Of a DNA stretch of 53,982 nucleotides, positions 2,148-53,982 are shown in pieces. Source of the stretch: a virus (taxonomy: Duplodnaviria; Caudoviricetes); IMG/VR virus record IMGVR_UViG_3300044766_000063, positions 1 through 53,982 of that record; one strand, written 5' to 3'. Under the pieces are notes generated by a model. The model was given only the letters and a program-made list of their open reading frames with translations, was not told the DNA's origin and searched no databases. Numbering within the stretch: position 1 is the stretch's first letter; each line of letters begins with the position of its first letter. The position numbers and the translations under genes were made by a program.

Positions 2148-2618
2148 ATGTCTCAGAAAAGTATGATGTACGACCATCCCACCTATATCACTCGCGCCAG
2201 TGAAGCTTTTGGTGCAAATACAGCGGGTGCGTCAGCAGCAACATCCAAGTGGGTTGCATTTACCGCTTCGCATGTGTTTTCGATTGCCGCCACTTCTTTT
2301 GTGGTGGGCACTTCGACAACCACAGGCTGGAACGGGACTGCAACAGTAACGGCGACCGGCACTGGCGACCTGATCAGCGGTATTAAGGTATCCGGCACTT
2401 CGACCAGCACTTATGGCCCGTATGCATTGAATGCGGCGCAGGGCGGTTTCCAGCGCATTCAGATTTTCCAGACGGGCGTAGGTTCGGCAACATCGGACGG
2501 TGGCGTGGCATTTGCGGCAGGCGATACTTTCCACATGGTACGCGGCACGGACGCGACTGCGGTGCAGGTAACCTCAATCGAGTACGCCATTGATCCGCTG
2601 GCTTCGGTCAGCGCATAA
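2148..2618 (+). CDS. Putative capsid decoration or minor head protein
   Basis: Ala/Thr/Gly-rich, immediately after the capsid gene, AAGGAG RBS. Confidence 0.55.
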   Translation: MSQKSMMYDHPTYITRASEAFGANTAGASAATSKWVAFTASHVFSIAATSFVVGTSTTTGWNGTATVTATGTGDLISGIKVSGTSTSTYGPYALNAAQGGFQRIQIFQTGVGSATSDGGVAFAAGDTFHMVRGTDATAVQVTSIEYAIDPLASVSA

Positions 2619-2630
2619 AGGAGAACTATC

Positions 2631-3020
2631 ATGTCAGTACAACCAAAATTGCCCGGAGACACCAAGCCTGTATATAAGGGCGAGGTTGAGGCTCCTACCA
2701 AGGGCAACAAGTTCGCCAAGCCTTTCGAGGAAGTAGATGGGGGTATTGCGAATATGGGCGGTCTGTATAACGACATCGGAGAGAAATCGGGCTTCGAGGC
2801 CAGTACAGATGCATATATCGTCAAGAAAGGCACCCCTTACGGCGAAGCAGCAAAGTTCAACATTCTGCCTCCGGGTATGGATATAAACGATCAACCTGTC
2901 CGTGACATCCGCGATATGTCCCTGAAGAAAGTCATTTCAGAGTCGTATCCGGGCGATGGCTGGGAACCTGCACCAAGAGATTTGGCTGAAGGTTATCCAT
3001 CCAAGGGCAGCTTGGCGTAA
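2631..3020 (+). CDS. Hypothetical protein with KFNxxPPGMDINDQ motif
   Basis: AAGGAG RBS; motif shared with 3178-3600. Confidence 0.65.
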   Translation: MSVQPKLPGDTKPVYKGEVEAPTKGNKFAKPFEEVDGGIANMGGLYNDIGEKSGFEASTDAYIVKKGTPYGEAAKFNILPPGMDINDQPVRDIRDMSLKKVISESYPGDGWEPAPRDLAEGYPSKGSLA

Positions 3021-3039
3021 TTCATGTTGCACCCCTCTT

Positions 3040-3070
3040 GCACGGCCTCTAAGCGGGGCCGTGCTTTTTT
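3040..3070 (+). terminator. Rho-independent terminator of the capsid operon
   Basis: GCACGGCC...GGCCGTGC followed by T6. Confidence 0.75.
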
Positions 3071-3071
3071 C

Positions 3072-3151
3072 TGCATCAAGACGCATGAAGGTTTTTGGAT
3101 TGGATGCCGCACATCCATTACCTCGCGGGAACCTTCAGCCGTGTTGGTGTA
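3072..3151 (+). ncRNA. Long hairpin closed by a conserved CATCAAGACGCATG / CAGCCGTGTTGGTGTA helix
   Basis: Arms pair extensively; both arms recur exactly at 52856-52869 and 52960-52975. Confidence 0.55.
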
Positions 3152-3177
3152 CCGCAGTTTAATTTAAGGAGTAAATC

Positions 3178-3600
3178 ATGAGCGGACTTCAAGAAAAGTT
3201 TCAAGTCATTCTTCCGCCAGCACCAAATGAAGATGACGGTACGGAATGGAAAACATTCGAGTCGCAACGTCAGACAGGCGAGGCTGGACAGGCTCACGTA
3301 AACAATCAGTTTGCAGATGAAGAGGTGGACGGGAAATTCAATCTTCCACCTCCCGGTATGGATATTAATGATCAAGCCCGTTTTAATCCGAACAATTTGC
3401 CATTGTCGATGGCGGGCAGTTCGGATGCCTCAGCCGATACCAATCCGCAGGCTTTTGATCAAGGTTTCACTCGTCGTGCAATGAGTGGCACTGATGATCA
3501 ATACACAGGTGAACACGTTGATCATTTCTACGGTGAAGTGGTGGATGAGGATGGGAAAACGGGATTTGTTGAAAGAAATAATTATTTAGACCGACTTTAA
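3178..3600 (+). CDS. Hypothetical acidic protein with KFNxxPPGMDINDQ motif
   Basis: AAGGAG RBS; motif shared with 2631-3020. Confidence 0.65.
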   Translation: MSGLQEKFQVILPPAPNEDDGTEWKTFESQRQTGEAGQAHVNNQFADEEVDGKFNLPPPGMDINDQARFNPNNLPLSMAGSSDASADTNPQAFDQGFTRRAMSGTDDQYTGEHVDHFYGEVVDEDGKTGFVERNNYLDRL

Positions 3601-3614
3601 CGAAAGGAAAAATC

Positions 3615-3902
3615 ATGGCCGTTCGCACAGAAACAATCGTATGGGGTAATGCCCCCCCAGGTGCAATTGTTGATCACGCTGTATTGGTTGTAACCGGAGC
3701 ATTAGGCTCTGTTCAAACAATTGATATTCCCATGGGCGCAAACAGCGTTGACATCCTGCTTGTGCCGGATGTTTATACAGCAACGGTTCAAGCTGTTGAC
3801 GCCGCTCTTAACCCCATCGGCGCATCCGTTACGGATACGTTTGTAATTATGACTCCGGTAATTTTCAGTATTCCGGTGTCAATGTCGGGAACCACAGTCT
3901 GA
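3615..3902 (+). CDS. Hypothetical protein, possible Ig/FN3-like virion protein
   Basis: Beta-rich, YTATVQAVD motif, AAGGA RBS. Confidence 0.5.
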   Translation: MAVRTETIVWGNAPPGAIVDHAVLVVTGALGSVQTIDIPMGANSVDILLVPDVYTATVQAVDAALNPIGASVTDTFVIMTPVIFSIPVSMSGTTV

Positions 3903-7311: not shown

Positions 7312-8703
7312 ATGGGATGGTTCAATAAATTACTCGGCAGCACATCGGGGAATGTAGCTGAAGTAAATGCCTCACAAGCATTGCTGGTTGCCCAAACCGG
7401 AATAGCTTCAGTCAGTGTTGCCAACCGCGACCGAATGGTTGACAGCTTTGAACGTTTGAGAGTATCCGAACCGCGCATTGCATTTGAGTACAGCTATGCA
7501 ACATTACCGTCCGCTTCTCCGGCAATTTGGGAAAACACAGCCTTCGGTGCCGGGACGCAAACCCTGAATGCAAACTCATGGATGACCGATCTGAATACCA
7601 CAACCGCGATCAATACCGGCTACTGGATTCAGGCGTATTGCCATGTTCGATATGCGCCGGGTATTTCAACACTGATTCGCCGTACATTCTGTTTTAATGC
7701 CCTGCAATCCGGGCTGGTAATGAAGATTGGATTTTTTACCGATCAAGGAACATTTCCAAGCAACCAGGGTGACGGCATTTATGTTCAGGCAAGCGGCTCG
7801 ACCATATCTCTTGTGCGCAGAACATTTGTAAGTGGAGGCGCAGGCGCAGAAGCCATTGCGGCTCAAGGAACATGGTCTTTGGATAATCTGGACGGGTCAG
7901 GCCCGTCAGGGGTTAATCTGGACTGGACGCTTACGCAACACTTCGTAATTGAAATGCAATGGCTTGGGGTAGGCATTATTCGTATCGGCTTTAATACTCC
8001 ACTCGGTCTGGTATTTGCGCATGAATTTTACAATGTCAACTTGCTGTCTGTGCCGTGGTGTAGAACGGGCACGTTACCAATACGAACGGAATGCTACTCA
8101 ACCTCCGGGTTGGCTACACCCGGCAAACTTTCGCTGATCAACGATGTTGTGATTCAGGAAGGTGATGTAAAGGACAAACGCGGTTGGCGATATTTTGCGG
8201 CTACATCCGGCGCTACAGCAAAGACCATTGGTACGGCAGCTTCGCTTTACCCGATTATGGCTTTAAGAGCTTTATTGACCAACGACACAAGCAAAAGAGC
8301 GCGATTTATTCCGCAAACTCTGAATATCTCTATTCTTACGGTGGGTACAGGTACTACTTCGTTGCAATGGGCATTGCTTGCGGCACCCACCCCGATGACG
8401 GGAGCTACCTTTGCTGTTAGTGCAAGTTCGACAAGTGCCATTGCGGTGGACATCGCGGCGACTGCGACAACCGCTGTAACCGGCTCAACACTGTTTACCG
8501 GAGTATTGCCAAACGTGGTTGGAACTTATGCTTTGCCGCTTGACGGACTGGATGACAACATGATCGTGCCGGGTCAAAACGCGGCAGGCAGTTTGACTAT
8601 AACCGGGATGAATGTGCTTACCTTGGCTGTTGGAACATTGACCGGAACCACGACAGTTGCGCCAGTCATAGTCGGGTCTATTGGTTGGAAAGAAATAGTG
8701 TAA
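7312..8703 (+). CDS. Putative virion appendage or lectin-like protein
   Basis: DNLDGSGPSG..LD and IEMQWLGVGIIRIGF motifs seen in phage structural proteins; AAGGAG RBS. Confidence 0.6.
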   Translation: MGWFNKLLGSTSGNVAEVNASQALLVAQTGIASVSVANRDRMVDSFERLRVSEPRIAFEYSYATLPSASPAIWENTAFGAGTQTLNANSWMTDLNTTTAINTGYWIQAYCHVRYAPGISTLIRRTFCFNALQSGLVMKIGFFTDQGTFPSNQGDGIYVQASGSTISLVRRTFVSGGAGAEAIAAQGTWSLDNLDGSGPSGVNLDWTLTQHFVIEMQWLGVGIIRIGFNTPLGLVFAHEFYNVNLLSVPWCRTGTLPIRTECYSTSGLATPGKLSLINDVVIQEGDVKDKRGWRYFAATSGATAKTIGTAASLYPIMALRALLTNDTSKRARFIPQTLNISILTVGTGTTSLQWALLAAPTPMTGATFAVSASSTSAIAVDIAATATTAVTGSTLFTGVLPNVVGTYALPLDGLDDNMIVPGQNAAGSLTITGMNVLTLAVGTLTGTTTVAPVIVGSIGWKEIV

Positions 8704-28358: not shown

Positions 28359-29975
28359 TCATTTCAACGCTATATAAAGGCTCTGTGGTTGAAGATAATG
28401 TGCGCATCCTGCCCCCGCAACCAAATTAATCTTCAGGGCAATATGTAGCCCTGAACTCGGGACTTCTGCGGTCAAAAAGCCGTCTGTTGGCCGCAGAACC
28501 ACTTCCCCTACCAGTTGGCGTAGAGCTTCCCTAGCAATCTCAATATGTTCAGTATTCCCTAGTGAAGACACCAAATCTTCATACATTTCACGGGCACGCG
28601 GGATCAATTCGGTTGGCTGGTAACGCTCAAACTCCTTTAGTTCGCCTTGGACATCCTTTAGCTTTTGTTCGCTATCTCGCAATGCAGCTTTTACCGATGG
28701 AGAGTCAATCCCGCCCATGATTGCTTTAATCAGGTTATCTATTTCCTTTTGGGTGTCGGCAATTTTCTTTTTGATAAGCGATGCATCAGGTGCGCCAGAC
28801 TTTAAAGAGGCGCGCACATTCTTTTCAAAATCAAGGTATGCTTCTTCAGATAGAAGTTCTCTTTTAATGCCTGTCAGCAATTCTCCTTCGACTGTTGATC
28901 GTTTGATCTGTAGGTTGTTACTGCAAACACTATTACCGCGATCTTTATGAAACGCGCACCCATATTTTGTCTTGTTTACCATGGTGTAATTTGCGCCACA
29001 TACGCCGCACTTTAAAAGCCCGCTGAATAAGTATTTGGACGGCGCACTACTGCTGCATCCCTTTCCATTTGCAGAGCCTTTACCGTTTTTTCTATTCTCA
29101 TCTGCGATGGCTTTTTTTGCCCGGATACGTTTGTCACATTTAATCCATGTCTCATCGTCAATAATGCGCAGTTCCGGCAAATTAACTGTTTTCCATTCCT
29201 CCTTTGGTCGCATGGTACGTAAACGTTTCCCGGTAGTCGGGTCTTTGACCCACTTTGTTTTATCGAACATCGGACTACCGATATAAGTTGAATTGCACAA
29301 CATGCCAACTTCTTTGGCGCTGGGATGAATTGAAGAGGGAGACCACGTACCGCCTGCTGGGCCTTTTACGCCTTTTTCATTTAATTCGGTAGCGATCTGG
29401 CGTGCTGCCGCGCCTTCTGAATAACGCTTGAAAATATACCGTATCCACTGAGCCTGTTCATTATTGATAGCAAGTTTAGAACCGTTGCCATCAGGAATTA
29501 AGTTATAACCATACGGTTTAGCGCCAGCGGAATATCCTTTTAAAAATTGCCCTTCAAGACCGCGATGTGTTTTTTTGGCGAGGTCATCCAGATATAATTC
29601 ACCCATCAAGCCACGAAGACTTGTTTCGATTTTAGAGTTATCTCTTGCGGTATCAATTCCATCTGAAACACCAATTATTCTGATACCAAGAAACTTAAAT
29701 TGTCGGATGGTAGTTAGGTTTCCTATATTGTCGCGTGACAAACGATCCAAGTCATCTACCAGTAAAATATCAAATGACTTAGCATTGGCGGCAGCTAACA
29801 TTTCCAGATACCCAGGACGATCATTGCGCGATCCGCTGATAGCCTGATCTTTATAAGCGATAGGCATTGGGAGATTATTGCGAGTGCAATAATTTTGAAT
29901 ATTGCGCAACTGGTCTTCAATTGAAGCCTCGCGCTGCATATCAGATGAGTAACGAAGGTAACAAGCGGTTCTCAT
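28359..29975 (-). CDS. Large serine integrase
   Basis: YLRYSS catalytic motif, DDLDRLSRD, recombinase domain, Zn ribbon LLKCGVCG..YGC..C and coiled coil. Confidence 0.95.
   Translation of the reverse strand: MRTACYLRYSSDMQREASIEDQLRNIQNYCTRNNLPMPIAYKDQAISGSRNDRPGYLEMLAAANAKSFDILLVDDLDRLSRDNIGNLTTIRQFKFLGIRIIGVSDGIDTARDNSKIETSLRGLMGELYLDDLAKKTHRGLEGQFLKGYSAGAKPYGYNLIPDGNGSKLAINNEQAQWIRYIFKRYSEGAAARQIATELNEKGVKGPAGGTWSPSSIHPSAKEVGMLCNSTYIGSPMFDKTKWVKDPTTGKRLRTMRPKEEWKTVNLPELRIIDDETWIKCDKRIRAKKAIADENRKNGKGSANGKGCSSSAPSKYLFSGLLKCGVCGANYTMVNKTKYGCAFHKDRGNSVCSNNLQIKRSTVEGELLTGIKRELLSEEAYLDFEKNVRASLKSGAPDASLIKKKIADTQKEIDNLIKAIMGGIDSPSVKAALRDSEQKLKDVQGELKEFERYQPTELIPRAREMYEDLVSSLGNTEHIEIAREALRQLVGEVVLRPTDGFLTAEVPSSGLHIALKINLVAGAGCAHYLQPQSLYIALK
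28406..28423 (+). other. Putative attP core: 3' end of initiator tRNA-Met
   Basis: ATCCTGCCCCCGCAACCA matches the T-arm and acceptor 3' strand with CCA of tRNA-fMet; lies inside the integrase 3' end. Confidence 0.65.
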
Positions 29976-36415: not shown

Positions 36416-36994
36416 ATGACCGACACACAAAATCTTGCTCCCAATGTTCAGGCGTTCCTGGATATTGCTTCCAAACAGTACGGCAAAATTAAAGCTGCCG
36501 ATTTCAAACAGGATATGTATTGCCAAGTGATTGAAGGGCAAATGCAGTCGCCCATCGAACACTTGTTTCTCATTGCCTGTCATGCAATGTGTGCTTTGCA
36601 ATGTGTAGAAATCAATCCTGATCCGCTTATTAATGATGATTATGAACTCGATAGCGCAAAGGGTTTTTATATCCATCAACAGGCAATGATCAGTAAATAT
36701 CGCGTTGATTTTTTAATTTTCCAAATCGGATGGGCACCATCCAAAATGTTTACGCCGGTAATTGTGGAGCTTGATGGTCATGCATTTCATGACAAAAACA
36801 AAGAACAGCGCGCATACGAAAAAGCCAGAGATAGAGCGTTGGTAAGGGATGGTTACAAAGTCTTGCATTTTACTGGCAGTGAAGTAAATGCCGATCCATT
36901 CAAGGTTGCTTTTGAAGCACTTTCGCTGGCGGGTTTGTTCGTTGGTGCTGACAACGAAGAATACGATCCGAAAAATCCATTGGGAGTCGAATAA
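36416..36994 (+). CDS. DUF559 / Vsr-like PD-(D/E)XK endonuclease-domain protein
   Basis: SPIE, YRVDF, IVELDGHAFH, RDRAL..GYKVLHFTGSE. Confidence 0.8.
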   Translation: MTDTQNLAPNVQAFLDIASKQYGKIKAADFKQDMYCQVIEGQMQSPIEHLFLIACHAMCALQCVEINPDPLINDDYELDSAKGFYIHQQAMISKYRVDFLIFQIGWAPSKMFTPVIVELDGHAFHDKNKEQRAYEKARDRALVRDGYKVLHFTGSEVNADPFKVAFEALSLAGLFVGADNEEYDPKNPLGVE

Positions 36995-37806
36995 TGGCGC
37001 GAGCGCGAAACATTAAACCGAGTTTTTTCACAAACGAAATACTTGGTGAGCTTGATCCTTTGATCTGTTTGTTGTTCATCAATCTCTGGATGCTGGCCGA
37101 CCGTGAAGGCAGGCTGGAAGATCGCCCAAAACGCATTCTGGGTGAAACATTTCGCCATCGTCGTGAAATTGCGGACGTTAACGGTTATTTAACGGTGCTT
37201 GTCCAACACGGATTTATCGAACGCTACAAAGTGGGCGATTTATCCATAATTCAGATCGTCAATTTCAGAAAACATCAATCGCCACATAACACGGAAAAAC
37301 CATCCGTACTTCCCGAGAAGCCAATAGATTCGCCGATAACCGTTAAACAATCGTTACCAGACGAAAAAGTGGTAGAAGCGAAACGCCCTGATTCACTGAT
37401 TCCTGATTCTCCGAATCCTGATTCACTGATTCCTGATTTACCGATTCCTGATCCCGTATCGGATGCTAACGCATCCTCGTCACTTCCGACAGAAAAACCG
37501 CCGAAAGCTGACCCGATTCCGTATAAAAAAATTATCGACCTTTACCACGAACATCTTCCGATGTGTCCGCGTGTTCAAAGGCTGGATGAAACACGAAAAG
37601 GACAAATCGCTGCGCGCTGGAAGGGAGGAGAAATGCCCGATCTGGAAACTTGGAAATGCTATTTTATTTTTGTTGGACAATCAAAGTATCTCACGGGCCG
37701 TGTTGACCCGACGCCTGGAAAAAGACGCTTTGTTGCAGACCTGCAATGGATAACAAAAAGTAATAACTTCACCAAAATTTGGGAAAAGAAATATCACGGG
37801 GATTAA
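36994..37806 (+). CDS. Phage replication initiator (O-like)
   Basis: MARARNIKPSFF...ADREGRLEDRP N-terminus; C-term ADLQWI..NFTKI. Confidence 0.85.
   Translation: MARARNIKPSFFTNEILGELDPLICLLFINLWMLADREGRLEDRPKRILGETFRHRREIADVNGYLTVLVQHGFIERYKVGDLSIIQIVNFRKHQSPHNTEKPSVLPEKPIDSPITVKQSLPDEKVVEAKRPDSLIPDSPNPDSLIPDLPIPDPVSDANASSSLPTEKPPKADPIPYKKIIDLYHEHLPMCPRVQRLDETRKGQIAARWKGGEMPDLETWKCYFIFVGQSKYLTGRVDPTPGKRRFVADLQWITKSNNFTKIWEKKYHGD
37178..37452 (+). repeat. Putative replication origin repeats inside the initiator gene
   Basis: TAACGR-N5-TAACGG units at 37178-37197 and, inverted, at 37335-37358; CTGATTC-type tandem repeats at 37389-37452. Confidence 0.5.
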
Positions 37807-49502: not shown

Positions 49503-52409
49503 ATGAGACCTGAAGACATAGCGCGACTGATTAGAGAGGAGGCGAGGCGAGGCGCACAGCCTAAAGACCTGGGCATTGAAGGCGAAAAAGGGCAGCTACA
49601 ATCCAGCCCTTCAAAACCGGAAAAGCAAAATGAAATTGCTGATGCTGAGATTCCCCCCCCCTCAGCATCTCCCCATCCGCAACCTGAAATTTTTTCCGCC
49701 CAAAATTTTTCAGATCGTAAAGATTCGTCTCCTTACGCTGACACTCCAAAATTTTTCCGCCAATTTTTGGAGCCAGATAACGGTAGTCTAACCAAAGCCG
49801 TACCGTTACTTAACGCAACTCTGTGCCAGCAGTACGACTCATGCCTTGATGTGCCTTTCCTGGACATCTTCAAGTGGTGGGAAGAGAAGACCGACCGGTA
49901 CAAGAACCTGCCTCTCGTCAGAGCGTTGTGCATGTACGACAGGTTCTTCTTGCTCGTTCAGATGTTCGGTCGTCAGGACATGCTTCATGAATGGCTTTAT
50001 GAGCGTTGTAGGGAAGTGGAGAGAGAGCCGGATAACTGTCTCGATCTGTGGAGTCGATTTCACTATAAAGCGGTGGACTTGCGTGAAGTTGTTCCGACTC
50101 CTTCTGGATGGAAGCGTCATGGAGATTTAGAGCCGGAAGATTATGTTTTTGGCCCGGACGGAAAACCGAAGAAAGTTCTTGCTCGGACAGAAGTGTTTAC
50201 GGATGCTGATTGTTGGGTTGTGAAGTTTGATAAAGGGTATGAAGTTGTCGTTTCAGCCGAACATCTTTGGACGGTGGACATCGCTTCAAAGGTAAGAGTT
50301 GGTGATGGTCGTGAAGGCAGGAAGACTGTAACGATCAACACCAGAGAACTTGCTGCTGAAGTCGCTCATTCCAAAGCAGTTGAGAGCAGAGTCTTACCTT
50401 CCGTTCCGGTAGCGAAAGCACTTGAGTATTCCGCATCAAGTCTTCCTGTCCCTCCCTATGTGTTGGGTGTGTGGTTGGGGGATGGAAATAAGGCTGACGG
50501 ACGTATCTCGAAAGATTTTCAGGATGAAATCATCTTGGAGAAAATCCGCGCCTGTGGTTTTGCAGTTGAACGTAAAGCTGGATTGAGCGTACAAATCTTC
50601 GGCCTTCTGCCGAAGTTGAAGACGTTGGGAGTCTGGAATGATAAGCACGTTCCAGTGAGTTATCTCACTGCCTCAATTGCGGATCGCTGGGAGCTTTTGA
50701 GTGGTTTGATGGATACAGATGGTCACTGTGATATTCGCGGTACAGCGACTTTCGTAAACAAGAGCGCAGCTCTCGCTGGGAATGTTTTTGAACTGGCCGT
50801 ATCGTTAGGTTTAAAACCTTCGCTACGGCATGTGGATGGAACTTACAACGACCAACCTTATCCGTATTATCAGGTCTCTCTTCAGTCCAGACATGATAAG
50901 CAAGTCTTCAGTCTTCCCAGAAAACAGGAACGCTCTACCGATGGGAAGGTGACTCGCTCTGGTCGTCATGCAATAGTCTCTGTAGAACCGGCTGATACGA
51001 TTCCTGTGTCTTGTATTCAAGTGGAAGGTGGAGAGTACCTGATCGGGGAACACTGCATCCCGACTCACAACTCCACCATCATTACTTACGCTGGGGTAAT
51101 TCAGGAGATTTTGAAAGACCCGGAGCTGACGGTTGGAATCTTTAGCCATGTGAAACCCATCGCTAAAGGTTTCTTGAGCCAGATCAAGCGGGAGCTTGAG
51201 TCTAATGAGCAGTTGAAGAAGCTGTTCCCTGATGTTCTATACGACAATCCTGAACGTCAGAGTCCGTCATGGTCGGTGGATAACGGGCTGATCGTGAAGA
51301 GACGGGGTAACCCGAAAGAACCTACGATTTCGGCCTGGGGTCTTGTTGACGGTCAACCTGTCTCAGCTCACTACAGACTGAGAGTCTATGATGACGTGGT
51401 GACTCAGGCATCTGTCTCGACTCCCGAGCAGGTCTCGAAAACGACTGAGGCGTTTGAACAATCCGCGAACTTGGGAACTGAGGACGGTCGGCGTTGGATG
51501 GTGGGTACGCGGTGGTCTTATGCGGATACTTACGCCGAGATCATGAAGAAGAAGATGGTGAAAGTCCGTCTTTATCCTGCCACGGACGATGGGACGTTTA
51601 CCGGGAACCCGGTATTGTGGTCGCCCGAGTTTAACGAGCAGATGAAACTTGAACAGGGAGAGGCGACTTATGCAACGCAATGTCTTCAGAACCCACTTGC
51701 AGGCAACCAGAAGATGTTCGATGTGGCCGATCTTCAGACTTACGAAGTCAGACCTGAAACGCTTGCAGTTTACATCCTCATTGACCCGGCGAGATCGAAA
51801 AAGACGGATTCTGACAACACGGCTATGGTTGTTGTGGGTCTGGACTACGCAGCGAACAAATACATCCTTGATGGGTTTAACCACAAGATGGACTTGCAAG
51901 AACGCTGGCAAAATACAGCCCGTCTCTATGAACGATGGAAACGAGCTACAGGGGTACAAGCTTTATATGTCGGATACGAAAGTTTCGCTGCGCAAGCCGA
52001 CTTGGACTATTTCCACGAACAGCAGAACCTGACGAAGATTCACTTCAACATAGTTGAGTTGGCTTGGCCCCGAGAAGGAGGTGGTTCAAAGATGGATCGT
52101 GTACAAAGACTTGGCCCGGATATGCGAAGTCACAAAATCTTCCTGCCTTATCCAACCGACGAAAAAAACCTGACTGCGGGTCAGAGAAAAATGACCCAGG
52201 GTTATGACTACCGTATTGCTCACAAGATCAAACGGAAAGATGAGAACAATGAGGCTTACGATTTGGCAGAACAACTCAAAGAACAGATATTTTATTTTCC
52301 ATTTGGAGGGAAGAAGGATTTGGTGGATGCGCTCTCCCGGATTTATGACATGGAACCCAGGGCACCAAGTTATCGTGAGCAGCGTTATTCAGAACCGGAG
52401 TTTGTATGA
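49503..52409 (+). CDS. Terminase large subunit (intein-containing)
   Basis: Walker A SRFHYK|ST, Walker B VYDDVV, VGTRW, nuclease ILIDPA and KDLVDALS; true start uncertain. Confidence 0.9.
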   Translation: MRPEDIARLIREEARRGAQPKDLGIEGEKGQLQSSPSKPEKQNEIADAEIPPPSASPHPQPEIFSAQNFSDRKDSSPYADTPKFFRQFLEPDNGSLTKAVPLLNATLCQQYDSCLDVPFLDIFKWWEEKTDRYKNLPLVRALCMYDRFFLLVQMFGRQDMLHEWLYERCREVEREPDNCLDLWSRFHYKAVDLREVVPTPSGWKRHGDLEPEDYVFGPDGKPKKVLARTEVFTDADCWVVKFDKGYEVVVSAEHLWTVDIASKVRVGDGREGRKTVTINTRELAAEVAHSKAVESRVLPSVPVAKALEYSASSLPVPPYVLGVWLGDGNKADGRISKDFQDEIILEKIRACGFAVERKAGLSVQIFGLLPKLKTLGVWNDKHVPVSYLTASIADRWELLSGLMDTDGHCDIRGTATFVNKSAALAGNVFELAVSLGLKPSLRHVDGTYNDQPYPYYQVSLQSRHDKQVFSLPRKQERSTDGKVTRSGRHAIVSVEPADTIPVSCIQVEGGEYLIGEHCIPTHNSTIITYAGVIQEILKDPELTVGIFSHVKPIAKGFLSQIKRELESNEQLKKLFPDVLYDNPERQSPSWSVDNGLIVKRRGNPKEPTISAWGLVDGQPVSAHYRLRVYDDVVTQASVSTPEQVSKTTEAFEQSANLGTEDGRRWMVGTRWSYADTYAEIMKKKMVKVRLYPATDDGTFTGNPVLWSPEFNEQMKLEQGEATYATQCLQNPLAGNQKMFDVADLQTYEVRPETLAVYILIDPARSKKTDSDNTAMVVVGLDYAANKYILDGFNHKMDLQERWQNTARLYERWKRATGVQALYVGYESFAAQADLDYFHEQQNLTKIHFNIVELAWPREGGGSKMDRVQRLGPDMRSHKIFLPYPTDEKNLTAGQRKMTQGYDYRIAHKIKRKDENNEAYDLAEQLKEQIFYFPFGGKKDLVDALSRIYDMEPRAPSYREQRYSEPEFV
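50070..51071 (+). mobile_element. Class 3 intein with LAGLIDADG endonuclease (334 aa)
   Basis: Ala1 start, EHLW, VSCIQV, PTHN|S; LGVWLGDG and LSGLMDTDG. Confidence 0.9.
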
Positions 52410-52514
52410 AGATCGGTGTAATCATTAAATTGAGTAGTGGCATGAAAATCGAACTTACCGAAGCGGAAATTTTGGAACTACGAAATCATCTGAATGTGAT
52501 ATACGGCACAACTA

Positions 52515-52805
52515 ATGTGCGGTCTTATCAGACATCACTTCAAATTGGGCCTGTCCCATTATATTACGGGGCGGGTTGTTGATATGAACGTAATCCTGCA
52601 CGGTGAAGGCAAGGAAATCAGAATGCACCGCACAGATATAGACCAGGTTCAGCACAAGCTCGTTGTCCCAACCAAGGTCTTCTCAAGAAAAAACAAGTGG
52701 GCTGATCCGGTCGGTGTTGATCGGAACTTAACTTATAAGTTCGCTTGCCAGATCGGTGATTATTACCACTATCAATTGAGCCACGTCACAAGCAAACAAT
52801 CATAG
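52515..52805 (+). CDS. Hypothetical protein
   Basis: ORF after TerL; start uncertain. Confidence 0.4.
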   Translation: MCGLIRHHFKLGLSHYITGRVVDMNVILHGEGKEIRMHRTDIDQVQHKLVVPTKVFSRKNKWADPVGVDRNLTYKFACQIGDYYHYQLSHVTSKQS

Positions 52806-52854
52806 GGTACTTTCGGACTACTCTCGTTCACTGGACGTGGCAATAAATAGTAAC

Positions 52855-53260
52855 ACATCAAGACGCATGGCGATTAGCCGCAAGGCCAAACAGTAGGGCG
52901 GATACAACCCGGATGGTTTCGGCCATGGTGCGGGTGTCCTCGGAAAGCCGCTTAGTCGCCAGCCGTGTTGGTGTAAATGGGCAGTAATGCGTATGCGCAG
53001 GCTGTTGCGCGCCGGGGGATTAAAGTTCCAGAAAAGTTTGCCAGACCCGGAAGCCAAAAATCAAAACTGGATTGGAGAGATCAGCACTTCACACCAACAA
53101 CATAATCGTAAGTTGTACCAAGACGTATATCAGTTAGCTTTAGGGTAATACCACGCGCCGGTTAATATCCGGGGAGGTTAGCTGATATATCGTGTTGGTG
53201 TAATGCGTAGGCTGAAAATAACATTTCGCAAACTTCTGAGATCAGCACAGAAACACCAAC
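52855..53260 (+). ncRNA. Array of structured non-coding elements
   Basis: Alternating AAGACG/CGTGTTGGTG-closed hairpins and GTTGGTGT...AGATCAGCA...ACACCAAC units with compensatory changes. Confidence 0.6.
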
Positions 53261-53328
53261 TTCAATTCGCAGGTGCAACTTAACACAAAGCCTGTAACCG
53301 CCCGCAAGGGTCTTTATAGGAGAGCAGC

Positions 53329-53571
53329 ATGAACGCAGTCGTTGCAAAGATGAATTGCCATTACATCCAGACGCAGGATTTTGGATACAACGCCCAGTAC
53401 CACAAAGTAATGTTGGGTGCCGTGTACGGCCAAGAAGGCGAGAACAAGGACTTTGCTGATGCAACGCCTTCCGGCGAGTGCTGGATGAATATTAATACAG
53501 GCCGTCCAGCGTTGGGATTTTTCAAGCCGAACAAAAAGTATTACGTCACTTTCACGGAGGCACCTGATTGA
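53329..53571 (+). CDS. Conserved phage protein
   Basis: EN..FADATPSG..M.I...YYVTFTEA; AGGAG RBS. Confidence 0.75.
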   Translation: MNAVVAKMNCHYIQTQDFGYNAQYHKVMLGAVYGQEGENKDFADATPSGECWMNINTGRPALGFFKPNKKYYVTFTEAPD

Positions 53572-53753
53572 AACGACTCTGGATCACCCAGAAGATAGCC
53601 CACTTGTTGGGCTATTTTTTTTGCCCGATGTGCGAAAAGTTTACCCGGAATAAATCAAAGTATCTGATTGGTGGTCATCATCTTTGCAATATATGTACCA
53701 GTGAAGTAATCAGCCAGAATATCAAGAGCTGGTACGGTGATTACAAATCTTGA
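53568..53753 (+). CDS. Small Zn-finger-like protein
   Basis: CPMC and CNIC; TTGA overlap. Confidence 0.4.
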   Translation: MKRLWITQKIAHLLGYFFCPMCEKFTRNKSKYLIGGHHLCNICTSEVISQNIKSWYGDYKS

Positions 53754-53947
53754 ACTACGCCAGATCAACAAAAGCCGGAATGACATTTTCTTCCAATATC
53801 TGCGAGGTCTGCGGCAAGAGCCGGAATTTACCTGTCCACAAAGAATGTTCAAAACTGAAACAGAAAGTTTATGCAGCACAACGAGCTAAGACTTATCAAT
53901 CTTTACATCTCGCTGAAGGTGGCGAAAGCCAAAGCGAATCTGTTTAA
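53750..53947 (+). CDS. Small Zn-finger-like protein
   Basis: CEVCGK...HKECS; overlapping start. Confidence 0.45.
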   Translation: MNYARSTKAGMTFSSNICEVCGKSRNLPVHKECSKLKQKVYAAQRAKTYQSLHLAEGGESQSESV

Positions 53948-53982
53948 AGATAAGGAAATCGAAATACCCAATTCATTGATGG

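Follow-up and report, generated by a model that had tools for sequence, protein, structure and literature searches.

Three hairpins on the + strand of the window, that is, of the whole 53,982-base record analysed here, which is rated a complete virus, have a closing helix in common and differ in their interiors. With confidence only a little above even, we regard this helix as the conserved base, or stalk, of an RNA hairpin module that stands between the units of multi-RNA transcripts, and the stalk is best read as a punctuation or processing hairpin that would be excised from phage small-RNA arrays. Its arms are tRNA-end sequences, and the 3' arm doubles in a second, mutually exclusive helix that closes a tRNA-like RNA downstream, which was overlooked in a preliminary description of this DNA. 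The features are as follows (P1 and P2 are the outer and inner helices, the tip lies beyond P2, and R1 is a covariance model built from 7 copies):

3040..3070, + strand: intrinsic terminator 3' of ORF 2631-3020, stem GCACGGCC/GGCCGTGC and a T-run, read from the sequence; abuts stalk 1.
3072..3151, + strand: stalk 1, stand-alone, without a tRNA-like body downstream; P1 3072-3079 with 3144-3151, G-G mismatch 3080/3143, ACG/CGU 3081-3083 with 3140-3142, then the CA/GC mismatch loop, P2 and tip; R1 66.5 bits.
3166..3180, + strand: AAGGAG ribosome-binding site and ATG of ORF 3178-3600, 15 nt 3' of stalk 1.
52855..52975, + strand: stalk 2; P1 52855-52861 with 52968-52974, G-G mismatch 52862/52967, ACG/CGU, P2 UGGCGAUUAG/CUUAGUCGCCA, branched tip; R1 112.7 bits.
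52967..53099, + strand: body A, a class-1 tRNA-like RNA; GUUGGUG 52967-52973, common with stalk 2, pairs with CACCAAC 53092-53098; hairpin 1 at 52994-53011 with loop AGGCUGU; hairpin 2 at 53073-53091, UGGAG-AGAUCAGCA-CUUCA, abutting CACCAAC.
53112..53204, + strand: stalk 3; extended P1 53112-53121 with 53195-53204, G-G mismatch 53122/53194, ACG/CGU, long inner stem and a tip of its own, ACCA in the 5' arm; R1 63.3 bits.
53194..53261, + strand: body B, a short class-1 tRNA-like RNA; GUUGGUG 53194-53200 pairs with CACCAAC 53254-53260; loop 1 GGCUGA at 53210-53215; hairpin 2 at 53234-53252, UUCUG-AGAUCAGCA-CAGAA.

The arms CATCAAGACGCATG...CAGCCGTGTTGGTGTA occur exactly at 3074/3136 and 52856/52960, and the variant arms TACCAAGACG...CGTGTTGGTGTA at 53116/53191. 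Taken singly, the 5' word YAYCAAGACG matches exactly at 3074, 52856, and 53116, and the 3' word CGTGTTGGTGTA at 3140, 52964, and 53191. As a two-armed pattern they are found three times in forward direction in the 53,982-base record, compared to zero times in reverse and zero times in the backward-read control. P1, the G-G mismatch, ACG/CGU, and an inner stem particular to each copy are predicted to pair in all three hairpins. The folding energies of the + and - strands are -35.9 kcal/mol (z -4.18) and -23.8 kcal/mol (z -0.46) for copy 1, -52.3 kcal/mol (z -3.14) and -39.8 kcal/mol (z -0.90) for copy 2, and -40.6 kcal/mol (z -5.61) and -23.9 kcal/mol (z -3.45) for copy 3. The preliminary description had proposed three copies of one closing helix around stems that are paired but different in sequence; the exact words together with the folds bear out the former, and the folds of all three copies the latter. 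It had also called the loci distant, which they are not. The order on the + strand, read across the ends of the record, is the 968-aa ORF 49503-52409, stalk 2, stalk 3, small ORFs, a scaffold-like ORF (149-1120), the major head protein (1143-2135, a phrog_1357 match), ORFs 2148-2618 and 2631-3020, the terminator, stalk 1, and ORF 3178-3600. Because in 13 relatives the homologue of ORF 49503-52409 shares contig and strand with the scaffold and capsid genes, which it precedes by 3-4.5 kb, the complete record must have been cut at an arbitrary point. All three copies therefore fall into a stretch of about 4.3 kb that surrounds the head genes. A simple promoter and terminator scan of 52300-53982 yielded 0 sites.

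Stalk 1 could be followed through close relatives. From 584 related stretches found by a capsid search the best 80 were used, and among these R1 finds the module in five loci (L004, L005, L006, L008, and L020). A 40-nt stalk remnant in L007 was seen by eye only. There are 43 distinct spacers between the genes flanking the copy-1 site, of which five contain a stalk or a remnant. Empty sites, proposed earlier as a check, are common, because 33 of the 43 spacers comprise 21-85 nt and hold only a terminator and a ribosome-binding site; of the others, two are longer than 400 nt, two have 188 and 266 nt, and in one case the flanking genes overlap. The stalk is therefore an addition limited to one sub-lineage. 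The order of terminator and stalk is the same in L005, L006, L007, and L008, and the stalk is found 3-12 nt before the ribosome-binding site in L004-L008. In this sub-lineage the arms are exact despite only 50-67% identity of the flanking proteins, which argues for selection on the arms and not for an unusually fast-changing interior. The likeliest role of stalk 1, which follows the head-gene terminator and precedes the next ribosome-binding site, is that of an mRNA punctuation or stabilising hairpin. The terminator and ribosome-binding site had already been recognized at this place, but the terminator had been assigned to the capsid gene, and it follows ORF 2631-3020 instead.

The stalk is widespread. 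A scan of the viral collection that required both arms, 45-75 nt apart, returned at least 118 stretches, and the search of phage genomes with a covariance model, suggested at the outset, gave at least 123 non-overlapping R1 matches in 90 of the 118 loci among the stretches listed. The remaining 28 loci look like chance matches to the pattern. One copy is present in 62 of the 90 loci, two in 25, three in one, and four in two, so that tandem stalks are found in 28 loci. The consensus of 115 unique stalks is (C)AYCAA-[G/C]-ACG-CA-UGRGGAUUG...tip...CAGUCCYCA-GY-CGU-G-UUGGUG, although the conservation of the arms is partly due to ascertainment, as the scan pattern demanded both of them. It describes an imperfect stalk of about 22 bp with conserved mismatches. 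P1 comprises 7 bp ((C)AYCAA with UUGGUG(U)) and is followed by a single position, which is G/G in 54 and C/G in another 54 of the 115 stalks, and by ACG/CGU. Next comes a tandem C-C/A-G mismatch, CA opposite GC or GU (5' loop CA in 106 of the 115; 3' loop GC in 79 and GU in 25), and then P2 of about 9 bp (at least 8-9) with a conserved U-G wobble, beyond which the tip is hypervariable. Inside P2 the tips have a median length of 45 nt (range 22-111). At the sequence level the inserts are indeed unrelated, as claimed, and this extends far beyond three copies: 122 tips fall into 100 sequence clusters with 84 singletons. Tip 1 of the window resembles only that of L202, and tips 2 and 3 match none at the clustering threshold. 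By eye, tip 2 and the copy-1-site tip of L006 are alike, and two small hairpins in them show compensatory changes; the clustering did not link the two. No motif common to all tips was found, and AWUACCWCGCG is limited to tips 1 and 3 of the window and L202. The word CGGAAAGACG(A) recurs just upstream of the stalk, often in a small hairpin, in L129, L137, L150, L153, L156, L207, and L212.

Selection on pairing is best seen in P2. Over 18 modelled pairs in the 115 stalks there are 1718 Watson-Crick pairs, 209 G-U pairs, and 143 other cells, of which just 15 are A-C. The excess of G-U over A-C shows that the stalk is strand-specific. In alignment A3, 94.7% of the cells are paired compared to 88.5% after shuffling and 32-43% with slid partners. 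Double-change cells number 108 against 27.3 expected, a value that 0 of 500 shuffles reached, counted on the 109 distinct rows of A3, an alignment fitted to the model and still including reverse-strand echoes. These echoes are matches of the model at the same places on the reverse strand caused by the near-palindromic arms, and they were dropped elsewhere (22 of 118 rows in A3 and 7 of 34 in A4). The reusable helix of the preliminary description is thus an RNA helix that is specific to one strand and under selection. Compensatory changes cluster in P2. In P1 hardly any change is seen outside the 5' side, and with a 3' arm that scarcely varies there is next to no two-sided covariation; the reality of P1 rests on one-sided C-to-U changes and on the solitary copies. 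Pairing in trans of the 3' half of stalk 2 with the 5' half of stalk 3 was also considered and rejected, since the P2 sequences are not complementary.

The relation of the arms to tRNA ends is seen where canonical tRNAs are adjacent. The tRNA-Glu of L137, called by ARAGORN at 8317-8396, begins within the 3' arm of stalk 8222-8326, and the tRNA-Tyr of L113 and the tRNA-Thr of L148 have their ACCA ends inside the 5' arms of their stalks. More generally, the ACCA tail of a preceding tRNA or tRNA-like RNA often stands at the start of the 5' arm or is imitated there. However, canonical tRNAs are a minority (13 of 118 loci, within 1 kb of 20 of the 123 stalks, always on the same strand), and the term tRNA operon spacer is therefore too narrow. 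ARAGORN does not call any tRNA in the window. More common is an exact CACCAAC, the complement of GUUGGUG, which is found 30-200 nt downstream of 71 of 120 stalks, compared to two of 120 for the reversed motif and a background of 4% per random 170-nt window. The box in three downstream regions was aligned by eye, the MAFFT alignment being uninformative. The median length of the enclosed bodies is 89 nt. In 28 of 69, body A of the window among them, a 5-bp stem directly abuts CACCAAC (3.6% at shifted positions), and its loop is T-loop-like or AGAUCAGYA; body B has a 1-nt spacer. It is thus the bodies, and not the stalk, that have the tRNA-like arrangement of a 7-bp acceptor helix stacked on a 5-bp T-like stem. 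CACCAAC is usually followed by AAC, and the bodies end with A-ACC or A-ACU instead of A-CCA. In 14 cases position 7 of the arm is not a G; in ten of these it pairs with the downstream strand, seven times as A-U, and in ten the 5' arm retains the C at that place. The acceptor-like helix must therefore be selected too, and the 3' arm takes part in two helices that exclude each other.

Nineteen non-redundant bodies including A and B of the window form class 1, in which GUUGGUG is followed by a hairpin (loop GCUGA), a middle part that varies, a covarying 5-bp stem bearing the loop AGAUCAGYA, and CACCAAC. The two loops are complementary and covary. GCUGA/UCAGC was found in 11 bodies, ACUGA/UCAGU in three, GCUGA/UCAGU in four, and GCUGU/UCAGC in one (body A), and the combination ACUGA/UCAGC, which would result in an A-C pair, in none. 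This complementarity resembles the D-loop/T-loop elbow. Some bodies are scored by the Rfam tRNA model (for example L109 606-713 and L189 2791-2888). The bodies of L109:606-713, L183, and L143 have normal D and T arms and the common acceptor stem, with about 60 nt replacing the anticodon arm; ARAGORN misses all three, and the Rfam tRNA model scores that of L109. The search of Rfam 15 with 25 array loci revealed only tRNA and one abiF RNA, and nothing on a class-1 body or stalk. The latter match (RF03085, 54.1 bits with a gathering score of 37) is the hairpin L167:2788-2824, which ends a two-stalk array and also looks like its terminator. The abiF motif goes together with an abortive-infection toxin, and the phage copy might be an antidote mimic.

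If the stalk is an excised hairpin between RNA units, its removal could be imagined as follows. In the precursor the stalk would fold first and bring the 3' tail of one unit (n) up against the 5' end of the next (n+1); as a spacer it would afterwards be excised. Both stalks are present in the minimum-energy fold of 52850-53275, so that by this prediction the precursor lacks the acceptor helices of the bodies. The body's G+1 is the G-G position of the stalk, and A76 of an upstream tRNA falls inside P1. On the 3' side RNase P might cut between the invariant U of CGU and G+1, the mismatch position; bacterial RNase P prefers a U at the place before G+1. On the 5' side, the cut would be made when the upstream 3' end matures. 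RNase III might cleave the 22-bp stem as a first cut, and the released body would refold into the 7/5 acceptor-T stack. In the window, stalks 2 and 3 would head the two bodies in the leader of the head-gene block. The enzymes named for stalk removal are guesses. The sequencing runs listed for this DNA comprise 19 of DNA and none of RNA. Several points speak against such a module, the near lack of two-sided covariation in P1 and the arms demanded by the scan pattern among them. The conservation across very different phages exceeds what host RNase P or RNase III would need, the bodies end with A-ACC or A-ACU, and stalk 1 is without a tRNA-like neighbour.

The stalk could also be nothing but an RNase III site, at which the host enzyme would cut the imperfect 22-bp stem to separate cistrons or small RNAs and leave protective stems. 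Its double-stranded stem of about 20-22 bp with internal mismatches fits, as do the polycistronic arrays and the place of stalk 1 between a terminator and a ribosome-binding site. Imperfect stems of about two turns between polycistronic units are likewise known from the T7 early mRNA and rRNA operons, where mismatches could steer cleavage. In contrast to those stems, the arms of the stalk are tRNA ends, the helix competes with a second one, and unrelated phages hardly differ in the arms, ACG/CGU, and the CA loop. Host RNase III is not known to need a fixed sequence. In addition, the tRNA ends expected in the stalk are staggered in the wrong way. Cuts at the usual ends of the neighbouring tRNAs would leave 2-nt 5' overhangs, but RNase III leaves 2-nt 3' overhangs, so that this is not RNase III geometry. 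On this analysis a pure RNase III site seems rather unlikely.

Conservation at the level of sequence, mismatches included, would be expected if the stalk were bound by a dedicated protein, following a Cas6-like logic, or by RNA polymerase, as an antitermination RNA of the HK022 put type at the head of a late operon. The genomic context is partly in agreement. Most common neighbours are the Sf6-type small terminase (15 of 90 loci) and three clusters of large terminases (14, 8, and 6 loci), all of them on the strand of the stalk (TerS 15/15, TerL 14/14, 8/8, and 6/6) and most within 0.1-2 kb, with the array located just before the small terminase gene or between both terminase genes. Orientation was determined from protein-family neighbours only, because the ORF-based count is unreliable with 59 of the 123 stalks inside spurious long ORFs. 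However, the small terminase is already the largest neighbour cluster, and a widely co-occurring protein family was not found, none being present in more than 15 of the 90 loci. Furthermore, stalk 1 is located after its terminator and not before, and the alternation with tRNA-like bodies would be left without explanation. We therefore consider a protein or polymerase site unlikely. A large terminase and a helicase encoded beside stalk arrays (L093:2303-4549 and L141:10010-12361, respectively) each have a match to an intein-splicing domain, the terminase match being below and the helicase match just above the Pfam cutoff.

The stalks are also places of recombination. There are 24 pairs of stalks in which one flank has an identity of 85% or more over 120 nt or more, and in 13 of these the tips are less than 0.6 identical. 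In the pairs L109/L183 and L195/L197 an identity of 98-100% starts at the 3' strand of the stalk, and in L135/L136 an identity of 97% runs through the 5' strand and ends at the tip. Judging from such joints, recombination between arrays takes place within the conserved stalk strands, and the many G-U pairs of P2 would be consistent with a hybrid origin. Breakpoints are found inside stalks and one array ends in an abiF-type RNA, and it is conceivable that the stalk serves as a universal linker in phage RNA cassette arrays, comparable to an integron but made up of RNA genes. Its conserved strands would let unrelated phages exchange small-RNA cassettes by recombination, and excision of the folded stalk would release a changing set of tRNA-like and other small RNAs, which could be decoys or antidotes where a host defence is directed at tRNA or RNA. 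We regard this as improbable, too.

Still less do we expect a primary role at the DNA level, in which the stalk would be a recombination linker or cassette boundary, attC-like or a hot spot of homologous recombination, for swapping small-RNA cassettes. The mosaic breakpoints inside the stalk, where the three pairs mentioned drop from 97-100% identity to none, would fit, and CACCAAC/GTTGGTG contains the AAC/GTT core of the attC R boxes. Like the stalks, attC sites are imperfect inverted repeats with conserved ends and variable centres, located between cassettes and read as a folded single strand with unpaired bases. Their R-box consensus is RYYYAAC / GTTRRRY, and by inspection against this consensus CACCAAC/GTTGGTG fits five of seven positions per side. 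However, the P2 covariation and the G-U bias mean selection on a folded single strand, and the positions of the breakpoints vary, as ordinary homologous recombination at any conserved stretch would produce. The Pfam search of the 86 ORFs of the window did not reveal a tyrosine recombinase or a transposase (25 families listed of 26), and the only recombinase found is a large serine recombinase at 28359-29975. An integron attC site itself was rejected on three features: an integron integrase is missing, the cassettes are RNA genes, and the breakpoints have no fixed position. The ends of a REP/MITE-like mobile element, as had been proposed initially, or packaging-signal repeats bound by the small terminase are very improbable, and the former are rejected, since the imperfect inverted repeats, the lack of a stalk at the copy-1 site in most relatives, and the nearby terminase genes are outweighed by interiors that differ in nearly every copy, the lack of a target duplication and of a transposase among the 25 Pfam families listed for the window, wobble pairs specific to one strand where a MITE or REP should be strand-neutral, and compensatory changes that are unexpected for a protein site in duplex DNA.

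Turning back to the stalk as a hairpin between RNA units, one of the closest known parallels is the tRNA cluster of T4 with rnaC and rnaD, where phage tRNAs and tRNA-like stable RNAs are likewise derived from one precursor. By its annotation and sequence, T4 rnaC has a T-arm-like GGGUUCGAAUCCC near its 3' end. However, the T4 tRNA region has no stalk (best R1 score 5.1 bits, E 0.73), and its units nearly abut, while those described here have one acceptor stem in common and are separated by conserved hairpins of 70-150 nt. Y RNAs of the YrlA type combine a conserved stem with a tRNA-like module, are in some cases cut by RNase P, and are found in phages (Chen et al. 2014, PMC4201824); their stem motif is given there as GNCGAAN0-1G. 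The stalk is not a Y RNA. This motif is present in none of the three window stalks and in four of the 115 family members, and there is no TROVE/Ro60 among the Pfam matches of the window (25 listed of 26 families). In addition, Y RNAs have the stem and the tRNA-like part in one RNA, while these are successive units here. RNase III, RtcB, RNA ligase, and reverse transcriptase are also absent from these matches of the 86 ORFs.

Concerning novelty, Rfam 15 gave 0 matches for the whole window at the gathering threshold and nothing on a stalk when the three sites were searched at E up to 10, so that no family accounts for the helix. A blastn search of 52600-53400 and 2600-3700 against 50,697 phage records found no match. 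The literature search did not yield a description of the module, and the arm sequence gave unrelated primer matches only. A 2023 survey of IMG/VR contains 8,495 unnamed candidate structured RNAs, 14 of which are located upstream of a large-terminase family and some of which are tRNA-like (PMC10690425). Neither a stalk nor an array is described in the portion of that survey considered here, and the family may already be among its unnamed candidates. The stalk is thus an undescribed hairpin without a match in Rfam 15, possibly catalogued before under one of these entries.

The small-RNA genes of phages are almost unannotated, and the covariance model of the stalk offers a searchable module. It marks hundreds of unannotated RNA arrays beside the packaging genes of freshwater and soil phages, probably of Burkholderiales. 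It reveals a class of tRNA-like RNAs using one acceptor stem, one strand that is common to two competing helices, and recombination joints inside an RNA hairpin. Versions of the module in cultured organisms make direct experiments on processing and function feasible. The cultured Iodobacter phage PhiPLPE (L207) carries an unannotated variant stalk and a class-1 body followed by a terminator at about 46.5-47.0 kb, near the right end of its record; this stalk, CACCAAC...GUUGGUG, has a different inner helix, is not scored by R1, and was read by eye. The 3' half of the stalk is also found in six stretches of the bacterial collection (three Burkholderiales MAG contigs, a Polynucleobacter isolate, an Acidobacteriota MAG, and a Flavobacterium MAG contig), and R1 confirms five of the six. 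In the Polynucleobacter isolate, a contig of 1.18 Mb, the region L212:380-1200 on the - strand contains the end of a class-1 body, a stalk, a body, and a tRNA-Gly(UCC). This array is probably part of a prophage and, if so, suggests Burkholderiales as hosts of the stalk family.

Some further observations concern the proteins of the window. ORF 49503-52409 has PHROG matches to several families labelled large terminase and a weak one to a primase family; it has no Pfam match and is unusually long for a terminase. The ORFs on either side of stalk 1, 2631-3020 and 3178-3600, are apparent paralogues without a Pfam or PHROG match, and have a repeat of 42 nt in common that is 81% identical (2853-2894 and 3334-3375, family D10). 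Finally, ORF 36994-37806 contains four overlapping tandem repeats with a period of 15 nt (CCTGATTC...) at 37387-37461.
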